Shown: positions 2,490-39,304 of the stretch, piece by piece | Numbering within the stretch: position 1 is the stretch's first letter | Layout of the letters: each line of letters starts with the position of its first letter | DNA from: Mobula hypostoma | Taxonomy: Eukaryota | Reading direction: 5' to 3' | Assembly (NCBI RefSeq): GCF_963921235.1 | Contig: NC_086097.1 | Location: 86,552,001 to 86,616,000 of the forward strand | Length of the DNA stretch: 64,000 nucleotides | The notes under the pieces: model-generated | Seen by the model: the letters and a program-made list of their open reading frames with translations, nothing else | What the model was told of the DNA's origin: nothing | Database searches by the model: none | Translations under genes and position numbers: made by a program

Positions 2490-2940
2490 GCACTTTAAAT
2501 GCGCCCAGTGACTTGGCCTCTACAGCTATCTGTGGTAATGGATTCCACAGATTAACCATCCTCTGGCTAAAGAAATTCCTCATCTCTGTTCTACTGGGAC
2601 ATCCTTCTATTCTGAGGCTGTGCACTTTGGTTCTAGACTCTCCCACTGATGGAAACATCCAATCCATGTACACATGTATACTCTATCTGGACCATTCAAT
2701 ATTCGGTATGTTTCTATGAGATCCCCTCCCCTCACCCCTATTGTTCTAAAGTTAAGTGCGTACACATGCAGAACCATTAAATTCTCCTCATACGTTAAAC
2801 TTTTCATTCCCAGGATCATTCTTAAAAACCTCTTCTACACCTTTTCCAATGCCAACACATCCTTCCTTAAATACAGGGTCCAGAACTGTTCATTATACTC
2901 CAAATATGGATAGACCAATGCCTTATAATGCCTCAGCCTG
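2490..2940 (-). mobile_element. CR1 3' fragment; continues at about 6520-6800 beyond the Penelope insertion
   Basis: RGGDLIETYRILNGPDRV and FFSQRMVNLWNPLPQ motifs. Confidence 0.8.
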
Positions 2941-2969
2941 CAAGTTAATTTTAGGGAATTATGCATTAT

Positions 2970-5900
2970 GAAGTCTCTTTCAGGGATGCCTACCCTGAAG
3001 TAGTTTAAATCTTCCCTTCGCTGGGAGTTCAGTGAAACCCTCTCTCACTCTTCCCCCTCGACTCTTCGACCATGTGCTTACCCAGACCCACAACCACAGC
3101 CATGAATCCTTTCTGGGAATGTGTCTTCGCTGCCAGCTTGTACCACACACTGTCCAGATTTGTTTTCAAGCTTCTCAATTTGGACCCTCTGAGGACCCCA
3201 GATCACATTCTATTGACAGCTTCTCCCGCTGCGTTCTATACGCTACGCTTTCCGGCATGAGGAGGTAGCTGGTGTCCCTATCCCAGTCACTTCCACAAAC
3301 ACTGGTATTCTCTCTCCGCCACCTGTAATGGACCTGTACACTTCTCTATCCTCTGTGGGATCCACACTTTCAATCACCAGTCCTTTGATTTTCTCACAAC
3401 ATTCAAGGATCAGACCACAGAACCTGCTGTCTCCAACACTGGCAGGCCTGGGAGTCTCCAGACTGTTGTCCTCAACGGCTCTAATGATCCAGAGCAGATT
3501 CAAAACCCAGACTCCATCGCCATCAATGCAGGGTCCAACGGCCTTGGACACCTCCAAAGTGCCGATTGCGCAAACTCTAACTCCAGCCTTGACCTCCAGG
3601 CAGGGACTTTACACACTGGCGCTGAAACCCCGTCTCCCCTTCCCCCATCACCACTCTGCAATCTTGTGTCTCTCAGGTCCCACCGCCAGCTATAGGGTCC
3701 TCAGAACCTCCATCTTCCTCCCACCCCACCTTCCATGAACACCTCAACCCTCCTTTCTCCTCAGACACTACCAACCCTCTTACCTCCTCTGATCCCAGCT
3801 CTCATCCCCTCTCTGAGGCAGAATGTTCTGCCCTCAGTCAGGGCATCACCTTTGTTCCCCTGCACCCTCACCTCAGTGAGTTCCGCACCACCAAGATGCT
3901 GAGCTCTTCTTTCACTGCCTCGGTCCCCGAGCCTATTTCTTTGGCAGGGACTCTCCAACCCGTGCCAATGACCCCTTCTCCCATCTTCAACCCTCCTCCT
4001 CTTCCTGGTCACCCTGCCCTGGTCTTCTGCCTGCTCTGGACCTTTATATTGCCATCTGCCGACCGGACATCAACCATCTCGACTTCAGCATGCCTCTTTT
4101 CAATTCCAACCTCCGAACGCTTTGCTCTCCACTCCCTCCGCACTATTCCTAACATCATCAAACCCTCAGATAAGGGGGTGCTGATTAGTCTGGCGTACTA
4201 ACCTCTACCTTGCTGAGGCCCAGCACCAACTCTCAGGCACCTCCTCTTACTTACCCCTCGAACAGGACCCCACTAAGGAACACCAAGCCATTGTCTCCCA
4301 CACCATCACCAGCATTATCGACTCCAGGGATCTCCCATCCACTGCCACCAACCTCATGGTTCCTGCACCCCAATGGTGGCATCCGTTTGTCTCACGAGAC
4401 CTGGGCAAGGTTGTATGGAAGACCGGCAGTTGCCCATGCAGCAAGTCTCCCCTCTCCACGACACCGATGTTGTCCAAAGGAAAGGCAAGTGCCAATACAG
4501 CTTGGCACCAGTGTCATCGTAGGAGTTGCCAGAACGAGGTTGAAGGCAATGTCGGACTGCCTTAGGGACTCCAGCTCCGGATTTGTCCTCAGGGTTTACT
4601 CCTGAAGCCTTTCCCATGAGTGGGTATGGCCGTGAGGCAGCGGAGGTTTGAAATCTGCACCCCACACCTCCCATTTCTACCTCCCACCCAAAATCCACAA
4701 ACCTGCTTATCCAGGTAGACCCATCGTTTCAAGCTTGTTCCTGCCCCACTGAACTCATATCTACATATTTTGACTCTGTCTTATCCCTTCCTAGTTCAGT
4801 CACATCCTGCCTACATCTGTGACACTTCACATGCTCTGGATCTTTTCAATGATTTCTAGTTCCCTGTCCCCAAGCATGTTATTTTTACCATGGATGTCCT
4901 GTCCATATACACCAGGAAGGCCTCAAAGGTCTCTGCTTCTATTTGGACACCAAACCCAACCAGTTCCCCTCCACCACCACTCTCCACCGCTTAGCAGAAC
5001 TTGTCCTCACTCTAAATAATTTCTCCCTTGGCTCCTTCCACTTCCTTCAAACAAAAGGGGGAGCCATGGACACTCGCATGGATCCCAGCTACGCCTGCCT
5101 GTTTGTCAGCTATAAGGAACTGTTCAAAGCCTATACTGGTAACTGTCCAGCACTTTTCCTACGGTACATTGATGACCGCATTGGTGCTGCTTCCTGTACC
5201 CATATGGAACTTGTCAACTTCATCCACTTTGCCTCCAACTTCCACCCTGTCTCAAATTTACCTGGTCCATTTCGAATACCTTCCTCCCCTTTCTGAATCT
5301 CTCTGTCTCTGGAGACAGCTTATCTACTGATGTCTATTACAGACCTACAGATTCTCACAGCTACCTGGACTATACCTCCTCCCACCCTGTTACTTGTAAA
5401 AACGCCATTCCCTTCTCTCAATTCCTCCATCTCCACTGCATCTGCTCTGAGGTTTTTCCATTCCAGAATGAGGATGTCCACTTTCTTCAAAGAAAGTGGC
5501 TTCCCTTCCTTCACCATCAATGCTGCCTTCAACCACATCTCTTCCATTTCATGCATGTCTGCTCTTACCACATCCTCCCACCATCCCAGCATGGATAGGG
5601 TTCCTTTTGTCCTCACCTACAACCCACCAGCTTCTGCATCTAGCACATAATTCTCTACAACTTCCGCCACCTCCAATGGGATCCCACCACCAAGCACATC
5701 TTTCCCTCCCTCCCACTTTCTACTTTCCACGGGGATCACTCCCCAGGTGTCTCCCTTGTCCATTCGTCTCTCCCCACTGATCTTCCTCCTGGCACTTATC
5801 CTTGCAAGCAGAACAAGTGTTACACCTGCCCCTACACTTCCTCTCTCACTACAATTCAGGGCCCCAAAAAGACCTTCCAGTTGAGGCGACACTTCACCTG

Positions 5901-6520: not shown

Positions 6521-7198
6521 TTAGCACTCCCAAGAATCTTCTGCACCACGAATGTCTGAATTCATTCCCATTTAGAAAATAGTTTATGCCAGTATTTCTT
6601 CTACCAAAGTGCATGACCATACACTGCATTCCACCAGCTACTTCTTTACCTTAATCTACCCACGTCCTCAGACTTCCTGCTTCCTCAGTACTATCTGTCC
6701 CTCTACCTATCTTTGTATCATCTGCAACCCTGGCCACAAAATCATCAATTCCATCATCCAGATCATTAACAAATAATGTGAAAAACACCACTAGTCACCA
6801 GAGTTTTCCATTCCAATTCTATTTTATTAGCTTAATTAGGCATCAAATCTTAACCCAAATGTGTTAGTGTGCTAGTTCCAATCACCATCTGAGTATAGTC
6901 ACTTTATAACAAAACACCATCTTCTAACTTCTTCAAGTGAGAAATCCACTAATTGTGCAAAACAGTACAATCATTGAAAATTGAACAGTTCATGAAACCA
7001 CTGCCAAAAAAATAGCGTCTTGTCAATGTATATCTCAACTTCTTTTTCACTAATTTTTTTGTGTCCAGCTCATTCTATTCGCTTTTCTTACTGGTTTAAT
7101 TTTTCACCTGCTTCTGTCCCTTTTGTATGGAACTCATGTATCTTGCAAGAGTTTAGTTCCATATCTTGGATGACTGATCAAACAGCTTTCCTCGACTG

Positions 7199-8321
7199 TG
7201 TAATGTAGAAAACTACTGTTGGATTTCACGCCTGGGGTTAGTCTAATAAATAAGTTGGCTAAATTTTGTCTGATGGTGACACACTATGATTGGCCTAAGT
7301 ACGGAACAAATGTAAGTCAAAATAATTGCTCTGGATGTGCATTTAAATTACAATTTGTGTAATTGAATGGACATATTCTGCACCATATCTCAACTTTCAA
7401 TGCTGCAAAGGTCTCCTTGCCCCATCAAAATCATAATTTTGTTTTTGAGTCAATGCCACCTGTACATAGCCCAATTAGTCTTCAATATCACTGGACTTGG
7501 CAGTAGCTAAAACAGTGCTTTGCCTCTTAGCCAAAGAGTTAAAATAATTGGCCAAAGATCAAAGTAAACAAGAGCCAGTCTTCAATTCTCAATATAGATG
7601 ACAAGCAGTCATTCGCTTTAAGTTAAAAAGCCAGCTTTGCAAATAAGTACTATCTGCAGAACACAGGCTGTTGGCTTCGTAGTACCTGGGCTAACTGGTG
7701 AAGAGGTGCAGTGTAAGACAATGGGGTATGCTTAATTTGGCTTATTTCAAACTAGACAAATCTGGCTAAGTTGTTTAGTTCAAGAAAACATGCAGACTGG
7801 ATGAATAATATCACTTGTACATCAATAGATGATCTATTAATCATTGGAATATTTGTGTACTCAACGATTCAGATTCGCAGTATTAATTGTGGGTACCTGG
7901 GATCTCTGTCTTCAGAAGTGTTTAGATCATTTGTGTAAAATGGTATTGGAAAAATACCACATATGTGTGAGGTCATTCAAGTGGCAGGAAAATAGTATAA
8001 ATTTATAGAGCAGTCATGCTTATTAGGAATGATCAAAAACATCAAGAATGAAAGAAACATGGGGTGAATTTCAATCCATTCCTCTACCTTTGATATCTGC
8101 GACAGACAACTGGTTCATCTGCAACTCATGGGTATCTCTTTTTAGCTTATAGGAACCGTACCTATGCTTTGGAAATTCTTTGTGTTTTAGCAATTGTTTG
8201 TAATCTGGAATTCCTTTACAAGATAGAAATACTCTGAAAGATTTAAATGTATTTTAAGAATGTTGTTTGGATTTAAATGTGGATCACTGCACATAAATGA
8301 ACTGCTTTTAAACTACTTTGT
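7199..8321 (+). repeat. 5' LTR of the foamy-like ERV (U5, PBS and 5' gag apparently deleted)
   Basis: Collinear anchors with the 3' LTR: tgtaatgtagaaaactactgttg vs tgtattgaaaaataaaacatgttg (7199/12612); ttgctct..tttaa..atttgtg..aatg..tattc..tatct (7326/12766); tcactggacttggcagtagctaaaac vs tcatctgacttgggcacccctaaaac (7488/14318); gtgcagtgtaa (7706/14816); taaactactttgt (8309/15295). Confidence 0.7.
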
Positions 8322-8804
8322 CAGGTGGAAGTATCTTCCTAATGAGGAGGGGATCCCACCACTCAGACGGTGGGTATTGGCAACTAAACTCATTATGGAG
8401 GATAAACAGGGAAGTGAACTAGTCTTTGAAGATTGAGTAATTACAGCATAATCTCCCTTTTGTGAGGGTACCTGTAGTTACCTATATCAGATAGGGCTTA
8501 AGGTCATGGTTTGAGTTTGGAACTTTGCAGTCAACAAACCTATACAATCACAGTTAGCGCCTGAAGTAGTCATATTATACCAAAAGTATTATTTTGGAAA
8601 GAATTATTATTTAGCAATAATCCAATTTAGAGCATGCTTGGTAAGTGCTATAAAACAGATGACATCCTGGTTTCCAGTAGTTGTGCAGGCAAATGCTGGT
8701 CGATGTTATGAATGTGTTAATTATAGGGCAGAAATATGGGATAATACCACAAATGCTCCTCAAATTGAATATGAGGAATATTTTATTCTTCAGGGACTGG
8801 AATA
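8322..8804 (+). pseudogene. gag: 3' remnant of gag with a degenerate CX2CX4H knuckle
   Basis: Near-open frame RWKYLPNEEGIPPLRRWVLATKLIMEDK...AGRCYECVNY lying between the LTR and the protease. Removing one base after CYECVNY gives G-Q, where Q (CAG) is one change from H. Confidence 0.55.
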
Positions 8805-8829
8805 ACGAAGGGATAGAACATAGAGAAGA

Positions 8830-11800
8830 ATGCAGACTAGACAGACTAAAGCCGACTGTACAACCCTGCTGTTTTGATACAGCAGATATTTCAATGCTAA
8901 GTTTGGATATTGTTCAAGGCAATAAACTAGGGGAGCAACAGGGAAAGTTAAAATTGAAGGCAAGGCATGAATGGAAGCAAAGTGGAGTGCCCATCTTATG
9001 AAGTTTCCATAAAGATATACGGAATTAAACGAACAGTAAAATTAGCTGTTTGGTCTTTACACCAGGTTTCTGCAGATTGTACTAAACTAGCACTTATATT
9101 ACGAACACTGAACGTTTCCTGTTGGATTCGTACTATAATCAAACCAACAACTGATGCAATACACCAGATGAATGAGACATACATATTCAGAAACAAGAAG
9201 ATTATCATCAGGATGAAACAATCAGAGTGAAATTGAAACATATTTTGCACAAATGTCATGATGTCCTACAACAATCTCCTAACCACTATGGAATGGTTGA
9301 TATTGAACCAACTAAATTAGGATGTAGTCCTTTCCCACGCCAGAAACAGTGGCATATTCCTGACCATAGAGGAAAGCAATCCCTACAGGAAATTGTAGAT
9401 TTCCTCTACTGACAAGCTGTTTTGAAAAAAGAACCTCCTCAATTTAACTTGCCTACGTTTGGCGTAGCAAAGTCTGCTGGACAATGGTGATCGGTCATCA
9501 ACTACATCGTCCTGAATAAACACATAGCACCTAATACGACCTAGCAACAGACATTACAACAAATGCTGCAAGGATTGATTTGTAAAAAAACTTTTTCGTG
9601 GATCTGGCCAATGGTTTCTAGTCACACCCAATTCTTGAAAGTGACAGACTTTACAGAGCATTTACAACACCCAATGGCTCACAGTATCAGTGGGTCAAAC
9701 TCCCACAAGGTTTTTGGAATAGTCCACAAATATTTATTGCAGAAGTTCATAAAATTATAACACACAGGAGCAGAATTTGGCCATTTGGCCCATCAAGACT
9801 GCTCCGCAATTTCATCATGCCTGATCTACCTTTCCTCTCAGACCCAACTTCTCCACGGATCATTCAGACTCTACAGGGAATACCAAACATTAGTGCATAT
9901 GTTGATGCTATATGCTACACAGCCACTGGACAAGCATTGAACACTGACAGAGACTTATTAAAAGGATGACAGATAGAGGTTATGTAATTAACATTTTAAA
10001 AATCGCACCTGTCATAGAAAAGTAAATTTCCTGGGTATGACAATCAGGGACATGGCTTAACCTCTCAATTTAGACAAGAAGTTGCCCAAGTAGGATATCT
10101 TAAGAACCTAAAAGCCTTATCATCAATCCTAGGCCTATTGAATTATGCTAAAGCTTTTATACCTGACTCTGCTCAATTGTCAAATCCTTTAAATGACAGA
10201 TGGACACTGAAAAACAAAAAAACTTTTGTTTTTAACCCAAAAGATTATGAGGTGCTGGAGAAATTGATGATGGACCTTCTTCTCCATGAATTGATGAAGC
10301 AAGCAATAGACCCAATAAAATCTCTTGTTCTGCAAAACACACTCTTTCATGGATCTGGCCAATGGTTTCTAGTCACACCCAATTCTTGAAAGTGACAGAC
10401 ATTACACAGCCTTTACAGCAGCCAATAATATCAGTGGACCAGACTCCGACAAGGTTTTTAAATAGTCCACAAATATTCCAAAAACCACAGCAGCCATCTG
10501 TTATGAGGGAAAAAAAACACAAGCCCCCATACATTATGCCTCATATAATTTCACCCCAATCAAATAGAAATTTCCTGCCTTAGAACAATATCTTATTATG
10601 ATATTCCATACGTATGTTGCAGTAAGAGCACTGCAGGAAAACAAACCATTATACAGAGTTAGCGGCTTTGAAAGCTGATAGGAAATTATCCACAAATGAA
10701 TGGAGAGCTACCATAACCAGTTATAAGAAATAGCAAGCACATTCACAAGACAACACTTTATAGTGGGAATACATTCCTGAGAGCTATGACTTACAATCCT
10801 TACCTATCATGAAAGATACAGAACCATCTTCTCCATGAACCGATGTAGCATGACATCTTTTACAGCACTATTCCCAAATATAGTACCATGATGGTTCAGC
10901 AAAAAAAAATCCAGAAAGACGGATTCACCCAATTATAAATATAAAATGAATTTTTTTAAAATCGGAAACTGAATTTGAACCTCATGAGTTGCAAGTGCAT
11001 CCTTTAGGGAATCATACAGCTAGCTCAGTTTGCAGAGGCTAAAGTCCTAGGATTATGACTAAAACAAGTCGATACAACAGAACCAGACTTGATATGTACT
11101 GACTCTAATTATGTTACGCATGTGGTAGAAAGAGATCTTCCCATCTGGTCAACTACTGGATGGAGAAGGCTCAGAGGTAAAGTGCTTCCACATTTATTCA
11201 TCTGGAAGAATATTTATGAATTACTAGTGACTAGACCATTAGTGCAGGTGTTACACATCCTGGGACATACTGCAGGTCTCTATGATAATAAACTAAAAGT
11301 AAACAAGCTGTCGAGATGGATGTTAATAGAGAAAAAGTGGCCAGAGTTTTGGTAGTAACTAAGTAACAAATAATAAAATAACCAGAAAGAAGTTTAGGAA
11401 TTCTCCTATGTACAACAAAACCCAATTCCAAAGGAGTTCCAACATGGTACAAATGTGAAGCTGAAGGTGAAGGTAAGATTTGCGTCTGCCACCCTAAAAA
11501 AGATAAGAAGCAAATCCCTCCTGACCATTGGCAGGAAGCACTGATTTAAGAAACACACCAAGGATTTCATTACTATCATGGTGGCAGACCAGCTATTCAT
11601 GTGAAATTAGCCATGTTATACTGGTGACCTTACATGTTGAGTGATACGTGATTCATTGCAAATAGTAAAGAATATCTGGCCTATAATCAAGGAGCAGTCA
11701 CATGACCACCTCCTACAAGACAAACAAAAACAATTGCACCAATGCATGCATGACATATTGATTATATGGAACTATTTCTAGCATCCCAAGGCAACCCAGC

Positions 11801-12559
11801 TTATCAGAAATCTAACAGATATATTCTTGTAATCATTTATGTTTGTATGGGATATATACAGTATGTGGTCAGTCTCCATGACTTCTTGTAGTGAGACCAC
11901 AACATCACAGCATTCCAGAACTCCATTGGCCCATATGCTGGTAATCCTGTCGCATTACATGGTAACCAAGGGTCTTTCTTCAGTGGTGAAAGGTTTCAGG
12001 CCATGAGTGAACAGCACTCCATGCTATTAACAACCGAGTAGCGTGGTGGAGTGAAGGAATCGAGAGATTCAGGAGGCCTGGCAAAACTAATCTACTCTAG
12101 AGGCCAAAAGTAGACAAAATTTGTCCCTGCAGTGCAACTGTCAGTAAACAAAATACCAGTTGTGAAAATATGAGTGCACAAGAATGTTACATTTCTTAAT
12201 GTACAATGTCTACTTAAATACAACACTGCTCACAAACTCAGGCCAACCAGCGCCTACACCCGAGACAATTCTCCTCAAGGAACTGACAGAGTTTGTGGGA
12301 ATTCAAGAAAAGCAAAAGAACCTGACAAGAAAATTTGGATACCATAAAAAGGAGACTGGGTCCAAGAAAAGAAATTCCATAAAAATGACCCCCAAATGGA
12401 AACCTCCCTGTCTCATTTCCCTGGTTATCAATGATAAGACTGTGGTAATTGAGATCATGAGAGGAAACAAGACTAAGTAAAACTGTCCCCATAGATTACA
12501 TCAAACTTGCCAGCAGGATCTATCCTCCCAGAACAAGTGGAACCCTTATACTAGGCTAG
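8830..12559 (+). pseudogene. pol: Foamy-type pol (PR-RT-connection-RNase H-IN) with many stops and frameshifts
   Basis: PR: FDT-ADIS (8873). RT: PRQKQWHIP..KQSLQEIVDFL, DLANGF*SHPI (9601), LPQGFWNSP, IPNISAYVDA (YVDD-derived, 9898), KNLKALSSILGLLNYAKAFIP. RNase H: YHDGSAKKNP (10884), PLGNHTAQFAE (11001, across a 4-bp duplication), ICTDSNYV..LPIW..GW. IN: KGVPTWY..GKICVCHP..IPP, HGGR..KLAMLYW*PYM, HIDYM, LHGNQGS, PKWKPP..VINDKTVVI..KTVPIDYIK. Confidence 0.92.
9761..9872 (-). mobile_element. Short CR1 3'-end insertion interrupting the ERV RT between motif B and YVDD
   Basis: Similar to the CR1 tails at 430-530 and 29790-29880. The RT reading resumes on both sides. Confidence 0.7.
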
Positions 12560-12594
12560 TAAATCGGTCCAATATGGAACTTCTTCACTCTGAC

Positions 12595-12611
12595 AAGAAC
12601 TGGGAGTGAGA
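12595..12611 (+). promoter_or_regulatory. Degenerate polypurine tract of the ERV
   Basis: AAGAACTGGGAGTGAGA immediately precedes TGTATTG (3' LTR start) and begins 36 bp after the pol stop. Confidence 0.6.
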
Positions 12612-12840
12612 TGTATTGAAAAATAAAACATGTTGAGATCAAAAAAAAACATAAAAATTCCTGTTCACTTGAGGAAGATGTCATAGATACATTGCCCAGG
12701 AATAATACACCTAAAATGCATTGTTACTTTAACTGTAAGAAAGATTTAAACTCCAGGGAGAAATGTTGCTCTCGTTATACTTTTAATATTTGTGCTTATA
12801 ATGATATTATTCAGTACTATCTTGCTTAGAGTTTGCTCTA

Positions 12841-14310
12841 TAGACTTCAGGAGGAAGAAACTAGAGGTCCATGAGCCAGTCCTCATTGGATTATCAGAGG
12901 TAGAAGGGTCAGTAACTTTAAACTCAATGGTGTTATTATTTCAGAGGACCTGTCCTGGGCCCAGCAAGTAAGTGCAATTACAAAGAAAACATGGTAGCAC
13001 TTGTATTTCCTTAGGAGTTTGTGTATATTTGAGTGTGGGAAGGGTCATTGCCTGGTTCATGGCGGGGGGGGGTAGGGTGTCTTTGGGGTTCTAATATTTT
13101 AACTGTCACTCATTCTTTGGGGGACTCTTGTGTTTTTGTGGATATTTCCAAAGAAAAGGAATTTCAGGATGTATATTGTATACATTTCTTTGATATTAAA
13201 TAGAATTATTGAACCAAAGGGGTTCACTTAACTTCATTTATCAGTCATTGTGATGTTTCCACAAATTATAGACTCAAATTCATTTCATATTCTTGATATT
13301 TATGGTTTATTTACTTATTATTACTTCTTTCTTTTTGTATTTGTACAATTTGTTGTTTTTGCACACTAGTTGTATGACTAATTCTGTTATGATTAATTAT
13401 TCTATTCTAACCATACTATCTTTTGGCCTTATTGATTATATACTTATAGATACTGATTGCAATGTTACAGCAGTAAACCCAACCTTCTTCCTCAGGCATA
13501 AATTAGACAAATGATAGGTCCCCCAGAGACACCTCCTTATATACCCTCTTGCATGAGCAGAGCATAGATGGGGCTTAATGCTCAATCCTGATTGGCTGGA
13601 TCTGAACTGCCTATTACTAATTAGCTAGTTTTGAATTGGCCTTGTTCTGATTGTTTGATTCTTTTAGGCTAAACCCTGTTTAGGAATATGTGGTGTCAGA
13701 CTGGATTTATCTCTACACTCTTAGAACGTACATGTAGACCCAGGTTTGATGAGGCCAACATCCTTAGCAAGGAAGAGAATGCCTACAAGAGAAAGATTAA
13801 GGAATCACTAGAGATGGAGCATGTGGGGTATCTAAACTTAAGTTCTAAGAGTGTCAAGATAGCTCCAATCTGGGACCACACTTACCTAATGAGGATTTGG
13901 CCTTTAAAAAAAAATCAACCAATCAGGACAATTCATACTAACCAATCAGGAATAGGCAATTCAGATCCAGCAAATCAGGATTGAGCATTAAGCTCCACCC
14001 ATGCACTGGTTCACTGAGAGGGTATATAAGGAGGTGCCCCTTAGATGGGGGTAACTTATCATTTGACTAACTTGTCTAAGGAAGATGGTTGGTTTACCAT
14101 TGAAATATTGCTATCAGTATCTGTAAGTATGTGACTGTTAATACCAAAAGATAGTATGGATAGATTTGATAACCAGTCACAAAGCTTTTATAGTCAGTAA
14201 ATTATTCTATTATTGATTTATTGAGCAAGTCTGCAAGAAAATGAATCTCAGGGTTGTATGTGGTGACATATATGTACTTTGATAATAAATTTACTTTCAA
14301 GTTTCACTTA
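12841..14310 (+). mobile_element. Rex1/Babar-type LINE fragments with nested insertions, inside the ERV 3' LTR
   Basis: Similar to 17770-18620, including the tail gaatctcagggttgtatgtggtgacatatatgtactttgataataaatttact. Confidence 0.7.
13414..14165 (+). mobile_element. Second-family Penelope 3' end with an inverted pLTR
   Basis: About 300-bp inverted arms (13414-13712 / 13857-14165) flank GIY-YIG C-terminal FDEANILSKEENAYKRKIKESLEM. Confidence 0.75.
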
Positions 14311-14876
14311 CTATGGCTCATCTGACTTGGGCACCCCTAAAACCTAATACCTCAGAACATTAGATTAAAATGTTTACTGAACAATGATGATTCTAATTTA
14401 AATATCACCAAATAGCCCTTACCACTTGGTCATATGTGAACTAACACACTGGAACTCTTGAATATTGTCTCTGGCAAAATGATTCTTCCTGCTGCATTGT
14501 AGTCCATTCAAGCTTGTAAAATATTGGATTAAAGTTTGAACAGCTTCCAAGTGATATTTTAACTCCTTGTGAGCTCACAGCATGTAAGGTATCAAGATGT
14601 CTGTATGAGTTAAACACTGTAGAATTGTTAACGTCTAATGTTTGCTGATAGCAGCTGGAGTCTTTCTTGGCCTCAGGCACCAGTAGCATAAGAAGAAAAG
14701 AGCAGAATGTATGTATCCCTGCATATCTCTCAATGTTTGTAGAACTCCTAAAGAAACTATGCTGAGTTAGTGGCATGAGAATAAAAGATGAGTTTGTCTG
14801 CCTCTGTGACTTGCTGTGCAGTGTAACACTATTTATTGAGGTGCCTTTTACTTCGTTATTGGGACTTAACCTAGAC

Positions 14877-15082
14877 CAGGGATGGCAAACCTTTTATATT
14901 CCATGCATCAATTTTGTCACGCACGAGTTCAGATGCGATTTTTTTTTCTCTTTTTTTCACGCACAAGTTCTATATTAACGCATTTTTACAAGCATTGAAT
15001 GGGGGTACAAGACTTGTATGGCGCATCTGAACTCGTGAGTGAAAAAATTGATGCATGGAATGCAAAAGGTTGGCCACCCCTG
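14877..15082. mobile_element. hAT-Charlie-type MITE
   Basis: TIRs CAGGGATGGCAAACC / GGTTGGCCACCCCTG, palindromic arms of about 60 bp, 8-bp TSD ACCTAGAC / ACGTAGAC. Confidence 0.88.
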
Positions 15083-17649
15083 ACGTAGACCAAAGATTAT
15101 GATTTGATTATGCCTGGGATGGACCCAGGGTGATTTCACAAGTCAGGATTCAGAGTTCTGCTGACAACAACAGCAACAATCAAGTGGAAACTAAGAATTG
15201 TAAGCCCTGAAATGTTTGGAAATTTTTGTAACTTTTTATCATAGTATTTTGTATGATTATTTGTGCTTTCTTTTTTATGATAATAAATTAGGCTTAAACT
15301 ACTTTGTTGTTACCTTATTACCAAATCTCCTGGATAGTCAAATTGTATGGTTTGGGTCTGATCAACCCAGCCCATTACACTGGTTGACTTAAACATTCAC
15401 ACTGATTGCATTGCAGCTGAAATGAACATAGATACATAGGAAGGAAAAAAACACTTGGGAAATGATTAATAAAACCCCAACAAAACTGATTCCAGCCCAG
15501 ATATTGAAGGTAAACTAATTGAGGAATTTCTTGACATTGATTTCTCTAGGCTTGAAGAAAAGTGTAGACATGAGAATATTGTAACACTCATGGGAATATG
15601 ACATTGAAACCATTAGACTACAACATTGTGAAATTTTTTTTTAAATAAAAAATCTTCTACATTAGATAGATATTGCATTTTCCCTTTATGGCCAACAAGT
15701 ATATAAAAACACAAAATTTTAGACATTTCCCTTTCTTCAATTATGGCCACTTTTCCACTTGATTGCTAAGTGTCAAAGATAATATGACAATGTTCTGCAT
15801 TAGTGGTTTGTATTTTAAATGATTCAACAACAGTGGATCTGGTTTTTGCAAAGGAAATTGAGATAGAAGGATGTAATGAAGCAAAAGATAAGAGAAAAAG
15901 ACAATGTTTTCCTTCCTGGTCAACTGAAGCTGCTAATTCCAATAACTGTTTTGGAGATTTTAGTACCATAGACTACCCAGATTTCATACTTGCCCTCAAT
16001 TAAACAGCTATGCTGTGGTGCAAATAATACCTTATAGCAAATTAGTACTGAACTTTTGTTTCCAATGAACTTAAAGCAGGGAAGGAAAAAAGCCTATAAT
16101 AACTTTGCTGTTGGAGACAAAATGATGATAAATTTTGGGGTTGCATTGATAACATTCTCCCCAAATAGATAATGTTACATACACAGACAAGTCTTTAATT
16201 ATTGCTGTGTGTTCAGTCACAGGCAGATAAAAAAAAACAGTACAGCACTGAACAATTTTGATTTATAAAAAAATATTAGAGTAAACCTGCCCATGCAGCC
16301 CTGCCTTTGACAGTGCTCCCTTTCATAATTGTACTGATGTTGTCATCCTATAGTTCACTCACAAGGTGAAATTTCTGATGACAAAAGTTGTTCAGACATA
16401 CTGTGGTCAATGAATCACTTGCTTTTTAAGGCTTATAAAAGGAAATGCTCCTTGGAGCAATCTGATTCTTCACCCAATATTGCATATCTCAAGACAGAAA
16501 TGAAAGCCCAGTTTTAAGGAATGATTTGTGATAGATGCAGCAAACAGTATTCTAGATAAACTTGATATTCATCAACAATGGCAAGAAGAAACTCAGTCCA
16601 ACCAAAAGAATATTTCTCTATACACTACTGGAGTAACTGAACTGGCATAATCAAATGAGCGAGGCACCTCCTTTCATAACTTACTTTTGCAGATGCATAC
16701 CAAGTCCCTGACTGGCTTAATGCTCTAGCTGAAACAATAACTAAGACCTTCCAAGCTTTTTCAAATTTAACTTCCGCAGCAGCAAATACAGTTTCTGGGA
16801 GGATTGGTACTACATTAAATTGGGTTAAAGATTTTTTTTTGCAGTTTTCCAATGGACAATTTCCCTTGTCATTGGATTTATTATTTTTATAGCACTCCTT
16901 TTGTTGAAGCATTGAAGCCTGCAAAGGATGGAAGTTTGGTGACTTCTGCTCCACTTCTAAGACTCTGCTAACACCCATACCCACCCTGCACTGCCTACAC
17001 TACACTGTCTATGTCTACTGTGCTATACCCTGCCTCATACTCACCTTTTATCTATTCCTCTGGTTTGTCTTCAAATCTGGAAAAGTAGGAGACCACCCTA
17101 ATTATGTTATCCTTGCTCCTCTCCTTTTTTTGTCCTGATCACTAATATTGTGTATGGTATGTATGTCTCCCCTCATTTTGAGGAATGTCGGGATATATAG
17201 AAGTTACTTAAGATTTTAGATGGCATGCCATATCTGTGCAAACTTCTGAGAAATAGATATGTTGTTGTATCTTTGCGATTGTACTCCAATGTTGAAGTTG
17301 AGATGAAAAAGAAATGTAGTCTGGATGTCACAAAGGACTGGGAAAAGAGAACAAGTAGCAATTTTTCTGTGAATGAATCAGCCTACCTAGCAAGCAAGTA
17401 TCAGTTAAGTTGCTGACACAATTAATAACATTTTATAGCTGCATCTGCTGCAATTGCTTGGTTTGCAAACTTTTCCACCTTCAGATGCTCCAGCGTAATA
17501 ATGCTATCATAGCAGTGTTCAGCAATGTCAAAACTTTGCCTTAGAACTATCTTAGTCAATGTGCATGCTGAAGTGCAAGCACAGTCTCTAGCATTACTGA
17601 TTCACAAAGATTCTATTTTTTTTTCTTGCACGCTTTCAATCTTTTATCA

Positions 17650-18620
17650 AAAATAGAATCGCCACTGTCATACACCGAATCAAAGGTGATGAATCAGCAG
17701 ATGGGAGGGAGATCTGACTAAGTGGTGCCATAACAACAACCTCTTACTCAATGTCAGCATGACCAAGCGGCTGACTTCAGGTGAAGTAAACCAGAGGAAC
17801 CCAGTCATTGGAAGATCAGAGGTGGAGAGGGTTAAAAAACTTTAAATTCTTTAGTGTTTTTATTCAGAGGACCTGTGCTGGTCCCAGCAAGTAAGTGCAA
17901 TGATGAAGAAAGCATGGCAGCACCTCTACTTCCTTAGGAATTTGTGGAGATTCAACATGACACCTAAAATTTTGACAAACTTCTACAGATGTGTAGTGAA
18001 GAATATACCGACTGGCTCATCACAGCCTGGTACGGAAACACCAATGCCCTTGAATGAAAATCCTACAAAAAGTAGTGGACATGACCCAGACAATCATGGG
18101 TAAATACCCCTCTGCCATTGAGCACATCAACATGAAATGCTGTCACAGGAAAGTCACATCGATCATCATGGACCTCCACCACCCAGGACATGCTCCTTTT
18201 CTCACTGCTGCAATCAAGAAGGTAGTATAGGAGCCTCAGAACTCAACTATCAGGTTCAGGAACAGTGACTAACCCTTAACCATTTGGCTCTCGAACCAAA
18301 GGGGATAACATCACTCAACTTCACTTGCTCCATCATTGAAATGTTCCCACAACCAATGGACTCACTTTCAAAGACTTTTTATCTCATGTCTTCTTTTTAT
18401 TGCTTATTTATTTATTTATTTATTTTTACTTTCTATTTGTATTTGGATAGTTTGTTCTCTTCTGCACTCAGGTTGAATGCCTAAGTCAGGGGTTATTTTG
18501 TTGACTGTTCTGGTTATTATTCTTTGGATTTATTGAGTATGCACATAAGAAAATTAATCTCAGTTGTATATGGTGGCCTATATGTACTTTGATAATAAAT
18601 TTACATTGAACTTTTGAACA
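17650..18620 (+). mobile_element. Rex1/Babar LINE, 5'-truncated
   Basis: KKAWQHLYFLRNLWRFNMTPKILTNFYRCVV and the family tail. Confidence 0.8.
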
Positions 18621-28745: not shown

Positions 28746-31519
28746 TGATGAAGATCTTCCTGTAATGATAACCACCTTCACCATTCACAACACCTTATAA
28801 TTTAATGTCATTTGCAAACCTACTAACAAACCCTTATGAATTAGCATCTAAATCATTTATATAAATAACGAATAACAGAGTTCCCTGCAGCACACCACTA
28901 GTCACTATCCTCCCTTCCAAGAAAAAAATCAACCTTCAATTACCACTCTATACTTCCTATATCTCTATAGCTAATCTTGAATCCACCTTACTAGCTCTCC
29001 CCAGATTCCACTGGACCCGAACCATCCAAAACAGCGTATCACATGGGACCTTGTCAAAGTCCAAATAGACAACATCCTCAGCACTACTCTCATCAACCTT
29101 TTCAACCACTTCTTTCAAAAAGACTCAAAGGTTTTTCAAGCACAACTTCCCACATGCCAGGTCATGCTGACTCCTCCAATACTGACTCTGCTAGAAGATC
29201 CTGCCCTTAGCAACTTCCCCACTACTGATGTCAGCTGTGAATTTGTTTCTTTAGTAGCGGTATTCCATGATCAGGTGAGCATGTCGCAAATATAGAATGG
29301 TTGCAATGAAGAATTTTGTCAAAAGGTTATTTTATTTGATTATATTTTATTTGAGGAAATCAAACTAAGAAATCAGATAATATTAGATTTAGTAATGAGC
29401 CAAATTCTATTCAGGGACATTGGAATGTGACTGTATTATGAAGTTCAATATAGGGCTTTGAAGTAAGAAAAACAAAACAGCCAAGATTCTATTCGGGCAA
29501 ATTTGATTTCAGTGCAGTGTAATAGAAATCTTCAACAGTAAATAAGGGGCAAATGAGTCAGCAAACCAACAAAAAAAAAATCAGAGAAGATTAAGATAAA
29601 CGATGTGATGAAGGACCATTTGATATCTCTAATGTTATGAGGGCTAAATGTATCAAAAAAAATCAACTATATATGAACTTGAGTTATAAAATACAACTTA
29701 AACCCATAAGGACCAATAAAAAATGCAGTAACTATCATCACCATTGGAGACAACGAATATTCAAATAACAGTAACAATGATATAAGACCATAAGACAAAG
29801 GAGCAGAATTAGGCCATCTGGTCCATCGAATCTGCTCCACCATTCAATCATGGTTGATACTTTTGTCTATCTCCTCCTCATTTCCAATTTCTAGCCTTCT
29901 CCCTGTAACCTTTGATGCCATGTCTAATCAAGAACCTGTCAATCTCTGCCTTAAATACATCCAACGACCTGGCCTCCACAGCTGCATGTGATAACAAATT
30001 CCACAAATTTACCACCCATATAAGAGATAGAAAAATTGAAACAGCCTGAAAAGAGTATAAATTCAACATCAAAGCAGAAGAAATTTATATTCAACACCAA
30101 AAGAATGGTTAGCAGGAACATGAGCCCAATGAATGAAAGAACATCATGAATAAAAATAAAGATTAATGATATTACATCAGTATTTACAGTAGAAACAGTT
30201 TATAGAGTCCATGGAGTCACACAGCCCTCTATGTCTTTATAATGTTCTTGGTCAGCTTTCTAATATCTTTAATTTGTTACATAATATCTAATTATATTGC
30301 ATTGTCATGACAAATTTAAGGCATTAAACGAGCCACAATAAAGCAAGCTCATAATACAGACCATCAACAATTTGGGCACACATTGTCAAAGCCTCTGAAG
30401 TAATTTTTTGGAGTTTCAAAATAAAAATATACTTAAAATTTTCTCTAATTTACTGCTGAAGTATAAGGGAAGCATTGGGGTCTGCAGAGGTACTCAGCAA
30501 CACCGCCAAAGATCATGTGATATTCAGTCCACACTATAGTTATGTAGGTCCAGTCCTTTCTCTTTCCTGATTGGCTGCAAGAGGGTACAGTAGCATACTG
30601 GTTAAAGAAGAATAACCAGTGTTACCGCACTCAGGTAGCATTTGCTGAATTTCATTTCAAATAACCTTTTGATTCTATGCATCTATGCCCACTCTCCTTG
30701 CTTGATGCAACTACTTGAAATACTAACTCATCACCAAAGAGAACTTTGGGAAAAGAAAGAAGGCAAGGAAGGATGAAAATTGTTCATATGTCACCAATAG
30801 TTTAAAATGACCAGAAGTGAAAATGCTCCAATCTTCCCAAAGTCAAAACCCTGGTAAATTCCTTCCTATCCTTTTTTCTTAAAAGAGGTTATCTCTACAC
30901 TCACCAGAAACAGGGTCACTTTTAACAGGAAGGAATTCACCAAATTGGTACTCACTGCATAGAACAGAAACCTTCTTCAGACGACTTTGGAAAAGGAACC
31001 TTTCCCAGACCTCCAATCTGGAACGTATTTTAAAGGTCTTAAAACTGTATCATCTCTCCTATCTCAATTAGAAGAAACCAATAAGTCAAACACAACCGAT
31101 TCTGAATCACCCTACCACCTACAGATCCCAAAAGCCTTGCTTCTCTGAAGTACAGAGTCCATACTTTCAAGCCACTCTCAATAGTTTAATCCAGGGGCTG
31201 ACCGCACCCACCAGGCACAAAAGCTAAAACTAGCATAGCATTCTAACTAAGGACTGACTGCGGTCTTGTAAAAAAACTGTCTAATTTATCTTATGGTCAA
31301 CTCTCCTATAATAATCTTGTTGGACAACAATCGATTTATTCACTGTTCATAACTCTTTAGAAAACAGTAGAACATTGAAATCTTTTTTTCAGTGCGCTAT
31401 ATTAATGCTATTCATGATGGCTGTATGTATGCATGTCCATCAAGCACATGTATAATGCTTTTACTCAGTAAAACATTATTTGGTAATTTCATCCTAAATC
31501 CTCCAACACACCAAGTGTC

Positions 31520-35146: not shown

Positions 35147-35704
<558 letters not shown>

Positions 35705-39075: not shown

Positions 39076-39304
39076 NNNNNNNNNNNNNNNNNNNNNNNNN
39101 NNNNNNNNNNNNNNNNNNNNNNNNNNNNNNNNNNNNNNNNNNNNNNNNNNNNNNNNNNNNNNNNNNNNNNNNNNNNNNNNNNNNNNNNNNNNNNNNNNNN
39201 NNNNNNNNNNNNNNNNNNNNNNNNNNNNNNNNNNNNNNNNNNNNNNNNNNNNNNNNNNNNNNNNNNNNNNNNNNNNNNNNNNNNNNNNNNNNNNNNNNNN
39301 NNNN
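39076..39304. other. Assembly gap (N run) in MAP3K9 intron 1
   Basis: Run of n characters. Confidence 1.

Follow-up and report, generated by a model that had tools for sequence, protein, structure and literature searches.

A decayed foamy-like endogenous retrovirus with a split env-like segment near a MAP3K9-like exon of Mobula hypostoma

The DNA analysed here, referred to as the window, comprises 64,000 nucleotides of Mobula hypostoma (NC_086097.1, positions 86,552,001 to 86,616,000) and very probably carries a decayed member of an old endogenous foamy-like retrovirus family that has many copies and an env gene. The family layout, LTR-primer binding site-gag-pol-env-accessory region-LTR over about 11 kb, is pieced together from overlapping copies, no single fetched copy being complete. 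The window copy lacks the middle of gag and the right-hand end including the 3' LTR, and retains env in split form, the family DNA beyond pol lying at 12560-12843, 14314-14491 and 15387-17194 with two unrelated repeat insertions between. The viral features lie on the plus strand, downstream of and antisense to a host exon encoding the end of an SH3 domain and the kinase N-lobe (35147..35704, minus strand), whose best match is MAP3K9 (E 2e-75, versus 8e-62 for MLK4), the host gene already named in a preliminary description of the locus. A position in intron 2 of MAP3K9 is plausible; no following kinase exon is found within the window.

That description delimited the provirus at 7199 and 15379 and assumed a pair of LTRs. 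Nothing at 7199 is repeated at 12613 or 15379, however, and both boundaries are TG...CA ends that occur by chance in unrelated DNA. The stretch 7199..7573 is not proviral and has no other copy (a genome search with 7100-7600 yields one candidate, itself), while 15379 is the end of a separate repeat of about 680 bp; a single outer element from 7199 to 15379 is therefore rejected. The 5' LTR is found at 7574..8552, its first ~165 nt missing. Family LTRs measure 1.12-1.15 kb and have TG...CA ends, with seven solo LTRs of 1118-1151 nt, one of which has a perfect 4-nt target duplication. A decayed primer binding site follows (8553..8572); it recurs in the internal copies, is missing behind solo and 3' LTRs, and may resemble a tRNA-Lys site. 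The junction between polypurine tract (PPT) and LTR is G-rich in the two copies read, without being identical to a GGGTG-type motif.

The pol gene (8867..12559) encodes a clipped protease, reverse transcriptase (RT), tether, RNase H and integrase, and is decayed by 22-23 stops and 15-16 frameshifts, owing to which the window copy presumably makes no working protein today. All seven motifs by which the Pol was first likened to that of prototype foamy virus are found in window frames (at 9601, 9700, 9898, ~10129, ~11013 across a frameshift, 11616 and 12488), and pol indeed ends at 12559, its stop being at 12557-12559. The claim of a full protease-RT-RNase H-integrase pol stands for a foamy-like pol but not for a foamy-type protease; the protease of the window copy also lacks its N-terminal part. 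In a frameshift-aware alignment, the window Pol is 31-33% identical to BFV, FFV and PFV Pol over residues ~121-1131, scoring 652-678 with foamy Pol, 104-142 with two Gypsy-type Pols and 51-56 with five shuffles. The second RNase H after the tether, a trait of Retroviridae as opposed to Ty3/Gypsy, is present (Pfam RNase_H at 11059-11352, E 1.2e-5), and the alignment to foamy Pol is continuous. The window protease gives no alignment with the foamy A9 protease (scores of 26-35, the background level), nor do four foamy proteases align with five family copies, a comparison whose power is lowered by decay; the protease of a relative, P0019, matches RVP and not Spuma_A9PTase. Private to the window copy are a short repeat inserted in RT (9747..9849, with related pieces at 436-522 and 29782-29858) and a duplicate (10325..10477) of the RT piece 9575-9734, 84% alike.

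Upstream of pol, only the 5' ~300 nt of gag remain (8573..8866); the junction of a gag deletion of ~1.48 kb, at 8866..8867, fuses them to the protease motif region without a shift of frame. As this junction is a short direct repeat rather than GT-AG, an origin of the deletion as a splice product is rejected; a deletion of about 1.5 kb is common to 8 of 39 sampled copies. The part missing here matches Pfam Gag_FV_central in copy L013, in one of nine frames and below the cut-off (E 0.001). No Cys-His boxes are found in six gag-bearing copies, where decay lowers the power of the search, and P0019 Gag scores 36-58 against six family gag regions (shuffles 36-52). In the family, gag and pol lie in the same frame with a TAG between them, seen in 8 of 14 rows, and these rows share no common in-frame ATG before the protease motif. 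One frame and a separating TAG suggest readthrough rather than the mammalian-type spliced pol, although splicing would also be compatible with the DNA; mammalian foamy pol is made from a spliced mRNA (PMC9143442). A search for RNA structure after the gag TAG finds none in eight copies (z -0.6 to +1.15, with low power) and so lends a readthrough signal no support. The literature searched, PMC5210030, PMC6955096 and PMC5512871 included, gives no relevant paper on readthrough in endogenous foamy viruses or on the deletion classes.

Beyond pol, the first piece of env (12560..12843) contains a strong hydrophobic segment (12771-12827) and an internal purine tract. This tract, followed by TG at ~12600-12613, had been taken for the PPT near the end of pol; it is real and common to seven env-bearing copies, but internal to env. 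A second piece (14314..14491) is followed by a third (15387..16915), which is rich in cysteine and holds the other hydrophobic segment (16850-16906). A post-env, putatively accessory region of ~1.6 kb then begins (16916..17194), the window copy breaking off at 17194. The G-rich tract at 17179-17194 is rejected as a 3' PPT because 1.55 kb of family DNA separates it from the LTR in copy L033. Of the two later insertions, 12844..14313 holds common-repeat fragments, probably LINE-like and also present at 17663-18619, into which two inverted copies of a ~440-bp repeat are nested (13401-14198), and 14492..15386 holds the unrelated ~680-bp repeat ending at 15379 (env-like DNA lies near none of eight fetched copies), within which a palindromic element of 206 bp is nested (14877-15082). 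Because these insertions split env, the gene was invisible to a reader without tools, and the DNA after pol, in fact an env-like segment running to 17194, was assigned to the LTR.

The segment is best read as a foamy-type Env with two membrane segments, each single match being below cut-off. Its stop frequency is 2.3% along a single frame path, 8.3% off the path and 3.2% in a reverse-strand control. In one copy, Pfam Foamy_virus_ENV is the only family match (E 3.3e-4, below the Pfam cut-off), and four of the five genome-wide matches of this model fall inside the post-pol segment. When profile A2 is compared with the PDB, three of four matches are 'Envelope glycoprotein' chains (8OZH, 8RM0, 8RM1; E 0.47-1.4), which we take to be foamy Env. 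Env matches are absent from all six window env frames, from 14 of 15 env frames in Pfam and from all 24 frames of eight further copies, as well as with profile A1, in one single-frame PDB search and in a homologue search with A2; a language-model atlas likewise gives no reading of Env. The family Env, at ~750 codons, is shorter than the 988-residue PDB chain. Its two hydrophobic anchors would correspond to the pair of membrane segments described for foamy Env (PMC11468914).

The preliminary description considered the provirus to lack env, either as a lineage or through a clean deletion here. This reading fails because 28 of the 29 other integrase-bearing loci carry an env-like segment after pol, of which the window copy keeps 95%; matches are found at all 40 scored loci, and the copies share no common integrase-PPT-LTR junction. 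Copies L014, L018, L021 and L026 do lead from pol to the accessory region or the LTR with no env between, and locus L093/L114 shows none after integrase, but the four junctions all differ and thus reflect separate deletions, which, with the segment kept so widely, makes an env-less spuma-related lineage spreading inside cells barely credible. Somewhat less remote, though still unlikely, is a foamy-like family whose 2.2-kb segment represents not env but an accessory gene or a captured gene for a membrane protein, the virus then having been non-infectious. The individual Env matches are weak, most frames match nothing, and ray-finned fish endogenous foamy-like viruses (FLERVs) have extra ORFs between pol and env (PMC5512871, PMC5210030). 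Yet three different kinds of search point to foamy Env, two of them (Pfam with copy frames, A2 against the PDB) placing a match to the N-terminal part of Env towards the 5' side of the segment, which moreover has two terminal hydrophobic segments and is followed by a further 1.6-kb region before the LTR.

It is also very improbable that a lokiretrovirus, an Odin-like or a Gypsy element merely resembles foamy viruses in Pol. The best PDB matches of the family Pol are foamy Pol (E 6e-22, versus 2e-5 for Ty3), and Gag and Env match foamy-specific Pfam models. In the RT tree, the family groups with P0019 and the catshark sequence P0001 of Scyliorhinus torazame (98/92), and these join mammalian foamy and newt sequences (97/87) on a foamy side (100/98) apart from orthoretroviruses and with Gypsy outside (100/99). 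The tree comprises 6 of 11 family rows, without named coelacanth, lokiretrovirus, Odin or published shark foamy sequences, and PFV Pol served as the guide in reading the family rows, a possible source of bias towards foamy viruses; with the same treatment, other ERVs grouped with orthoretroviruses. The families L120-L133 were rejected as loki-like, grouping with WEHV1 and other orthoretroviral RTs. A protease unlike the A9 type of foamy viruses and the single frame of gag and pol favour an element outside the foamy viruses, but the loki Env resembles paramyxovirus F (PMC7947760), and Pfam searches of window env frames and other copies give no Fusion_gly match. Lokiretroviruses are sister to all other retroviruses, whereas the family is nested within the foamy side of the tree. 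The assignment as spuma-related and not Gypsy is thus borne out by Pol alignment, PDB matches and RT tree.

The family resembles PFV, FFV, BFV and EFV in its Pol from RT to integrase, 31-33% identical, and in weak Gag and Env model matches. With mammalian foamy viruses it shares the two hydrophobic segments of Env, and a region between env and LTR, and no Cys-His box is visible in its decayed gag copies, but it differs in having gag and pol in one frame with a TAG between, a protease that is not A9-like and a shorter Env. A study by Wang, Chen and Cui reportedly covers sharks and rays, including S. torazame. By its title, this work describes an endogenous foamy virus from cartilaginous fish that roots to the vertebrate foamy viruses (J Virol 2023, PMC9972966), and at the level of the title the tree position of the family fits. 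As described in PMC10699275, ERV-Spuma.0-Sca of the small-spotted catshark likewise has gag, pol and env between LTRs, with gag and pol ORFs both in frame 3; unlike the family, with its ~11 kb, LTRs of 1.12-1.15 kb and putative accessory region, it measures 9.2 kb, has an 866-nt LTR, a 1.3-kb env and no accessory region, and groups with ray-finned fish FLERVs. Fish and amphibian FLERVs (PMC5512871, PMC5210030) are also endogenous and decayed, with gag-pol-env and accessory ORFs. No detectable similarity to known viruses is reported for teleost FLERV gag and env, whereas the family gives weak foamy matches, and teleost FLERV proteins fall outside the RT clade holding the family and mammalian foamy viruses; for the shark FLERV, only pol is reported as found (PMC5512871).

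Family copies show ~78% likeness to one another and end branches of 0.13 in their tree, and LTR pairs are 69-84% alike. As the copy tree is star-shaped, an enveloped foamy-like virus may have colonised the germ line and amplified there in a single burst. Two deletion classes with shared junctions are observed, the gag-deleted class, to which the window copy belongs, and another without protease and the region of the RT active site. Both would have arisen by template switching at short direct repeats. Since both classes would have been copied again, their proteins would necessarily have been supplied in trans. Mouse IAP I-delta-1, an ERV class that is non-autonomous through a gag-pol deletion in frame, is copied in trans; the analogy to the gag-deleted class is one of mechanism only, IAP being unrelated, class II, env-less and active. 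The RT palm is missing in 0 of 8 gag-deleted and 8 of 12 gag-bearing copies, a sample drawn with the window as query; complementation may account for this split, but two separate founders would produce it as well. The gag-deleted copies are not monophyletic, and a single origin is unsupported (4 changes on the tree, like shuffles). After integration, the window copy lost its LTR ends, and the two repeats inserted into its env.

Cartilaginous fish are already known from the literature to have endogenous foamy viruses, to judge from the title of Wang 2023 (PMC9972966), and an env-less foamy lineage would have surprised; with that reading refuted, what is left is a complete map of the genes of an old foamy-like virus of shark or ray type. 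We tentatively propose, as a doubtful reading, that mammalian foamy viruses invented their spliced, Gag-independent Pol later and that two complementary defective classes account for part of the family's spread in this genome, one gag-deleted with pol and env, the other with gag, env and a dead RT, able to supply each other. The gag/pol junction is a useful lead: if it is true that basal relatives of mammalian foamy viruses reach pol by reading through a stop, the point at which the subfamily's hallmark, a spliced pol, originated could be placed on the tree.

Every one of the foamy-like Pol motifs quoted in the preliminary description is present in the window, and the end of pol that it placed at 12559 coincides with a stop codon. 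When the RT frame of the window is searched against PDB, foamy Pol structures rank first (E 6e-22 to 1e-20; judging by their names, we take the top chains to be foamy Pol), followed by Ty3 at 2e-5 and HIV-1 at about 0.004. Frameshift-aware alignment to BFV, FFV and PFV Pol covers residues ~121-1131 at 31-33% identity, scoring 652-678 against the foamy proteins, whereas two Gypsy-type Pols score 104-142 and shuffles 51-56; aligned in this way to foamy Pol, the window pol carries 22-23 stops and 15-16 frameshifts. The spuma-related rather than Gypsy affinity proposed earlier holds in RT trees built with FastTree (172 rows) and IQ-TREE (48 rows drawn from those), which give concordant placements with the family on the foamy side and Gypsy outside. 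Reading the family rows against PFV may have introduced bias, but other ERVs read likewise are placed elsewhere.

Within these trees, which are labelled by source names and contain no named loki, Odin, coelacanth or published shark sequences, the family forms one group (98/92) with the Scyliorhinus torazame protein P0001 and the Gag-Pol protein P0019, and this group in turn unites (97/87) with Pleurodeles sequences and the foamy viruses of mammals. Deeper on the foamy side (100/98) come proteins from teleosts and Callorhinchus, and the sister side comprises WEHV1 and other orthoretroviral RTs; we infer that the teleost and newt proteins are FLERVs. P0019, sister to the family plus P0001, is an intact-looking 1687-aa Gag-Pol in one ORF from a record of 10,956 nt, and may represent a foamy-like virus that is young or circulating. 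P0001 (scyTo_0007882) is a predicted protein in which a PR/SET domain is fused with a foamy-like RT, probably a gene-model chimera.

The boundaries proposed for the provirus did not survive comparison with the many other copies in the genome, which are 70-80% alike and were sampled as 39 loci of 10 kb, 20 of them extended, plus 15 further loci. No LTR pair links 7199 to 12613 or 15379; 7100-7600 is single-copy, and 15379 is the end of a separate ~680-bp repeat. The true family LTR measures 1.12-1.15 kb, occurs also as solo LTRs, and ends in the window at 8552, where a primer site common to the copies follows. DNA shared with other copies occupies 7565-9746, 9850-10270, 10477-12843, 14314-14491 and 15387-17194, and the family as a whole is organised as LTR-PBS-gag (~1.8 kb)-pol-env (~2.2 kb)-region of ~1.6 kb-LTR. 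First-look searches returned 4256 LTR, 206 gag-start, 209 integrase-end and 409 env candidates, counts that are not copy numbers and that suggest hundreds of proviruses. The provirus lies downstream of, and antisense to, a MAP3K9-like exon recognised by sequence match at 35704-35147 on the minus strand; the next MAP3K9 exon was not found within the window, which leaves intron 2 a tentative placement. A run of 229 N at 39076-39304 falls outside the provirus.

The post-pol pieces split in the window are uninterrupted in other copies, and the gaps between them are later insertions. The one at 12844-14313 consists of a common repeat into which two inverted copies of a 440-bp repeat are nested. The one at 14492-15386 holds the ~680-bp repeat, with a palindromic element inside it; none of eight fetched copies of this repeat has env-like DNA nearby. 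A 770-bp imperfect palindrome at 13401-14198 consists of two inverted copies of the ~440-bp repeat family. The idea of an env-less family sharing a pol-LTR junction fails on the results of an integrase-end search (40 matches, 30 loci cut out, one being the window), as an env-like post-pol segment lies no more than 1.5 kb from the integrase end in 28 of the 29 other loci; four fetched copies do lack the segment, with a different junction in each. This segment was formerly coding, its frame path containing 2.3% stops versus 8.3% off-path and 3.2% in a reverse-strand control. Pfam Foamy_virus_ENV is the sole match in one of 15 env frames (E 3.3e-4), and four of its five genome-wide matches fall within the segment (E 0.015-0.51, none over the cut-off). 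A profile built from 19 in-frame stretches matches four PDB chains, three of which are envelope glycoproteins (E 0.47-1.4), and hydrophobic segments stand at either end, at 12771 and 16850, as foamy Env likewise bears them according to passages of PMC11468914. On these four lines of evidence, each of them weak, the segment resembles foamy Env. No Env match was obtained in the window's own frames, in 24 frames of eight further copies, with a second profile, in a single-frame PDB search, or in a homologue search with the PDB-matching profile.

Other ERVs share this genome. L120 (G000 C9:67315000-), L123 (C64:7787000-) and L127 (C1:111898000-) represent younger families that fall on the orthoretroviral side in the RT tree; their paired terminal repeats, 91-95% alike, enclose spans of just 5.4, 6.3 and 7.5 kb. 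As candidates for ERVs truly devoid of env, the two shorter are better than the window provirus. L128-L132 form an Epsilon-like family that groups beside WEHV1 and has open frames 1,100-1,400 codons long.

Gag, rather, is reduced in the window, where a deletion of about 1.48 kb, with its junction at 8866/8867 in a short direct repeat, fuses the gag start in frame with the protease motif region. The same junction recurs in six of 30 newly fetched junctions (23 retain gag, one is unclear) and in two of nine earlier gag-start matches, eight of 39 altogether. A second class, found in 10 of 16 inspected copies, keeps gag and, in most cases, env, and lacks the RT active-site region, usually together with protease. 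No copy carries both deletions, the RT region being missing in none of eight gag-deleted versus eight of 12 gag-bearing copies under biased sampling. In a star-like tree of 27 copies (end branches 0.13, mean identity 78%), RT-deleted copies group together and gag-deleted ones do not. The amplification burst is old, since LTR pairs within three copies are only 69-84% alike. Individual loci show further rearrangement: L021 carries a ~1 kb internal tandem duplication (2725-4733, 75% alike) over the gag end and deleted RT junction, and in L047 two 100% identical 880-bp repeats (3975-4855 and 8013-8893), exactly at the RT break, mark the insertion of a very young element in a provirus that is itself old. 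Open frames of 977 codons (beyond L030, in L064) and 684 codons (beyond L015, in L062) belong to other retroelements adjoining family copies.

In gag-bearing copies a single frame stays stop-poor through gag up to the protease motif, and the 26th codon before that motif is TAG in eight of 14 rows and one change from TAG in each of the other six; stops that are frequent at other in-frame positions are for the most part TGA alongside CGA or fall within the first ~110 columns. Judged from this pattern, Pol would rather probably be expressed by readthrough of the gag TAG, as the gag stop of MLV is read through, whereas the Pol of mammalian foamy viruses is translated from a spliced mRNA (both in passages of PMC9143442). 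A splice that escaped notice is a less probable source of Pol. No in-frame ATG common to the copies lies between the TAG and the protease motif, and no RNA structure was detected downstream of the TAG. P0019 joins Gag and Pol, with an RVP-type protease, in a single ORF, and the gag and pol ORFs of the catshark ERV-Spuma.0-Sca share one frame, as given in PMC10699275. Nothing on deletion classes or readthrough in such viruses was found in a literature search that did not reach the most relevant papers. Foamy-like ERVs of sharks have already been described (in sections of PMC5512871 and PMC10699275), and the window provirus, a real foamy-like provirus that is not env-less, most likely belongs to these ERVs of sharks and cartilaginous fish.
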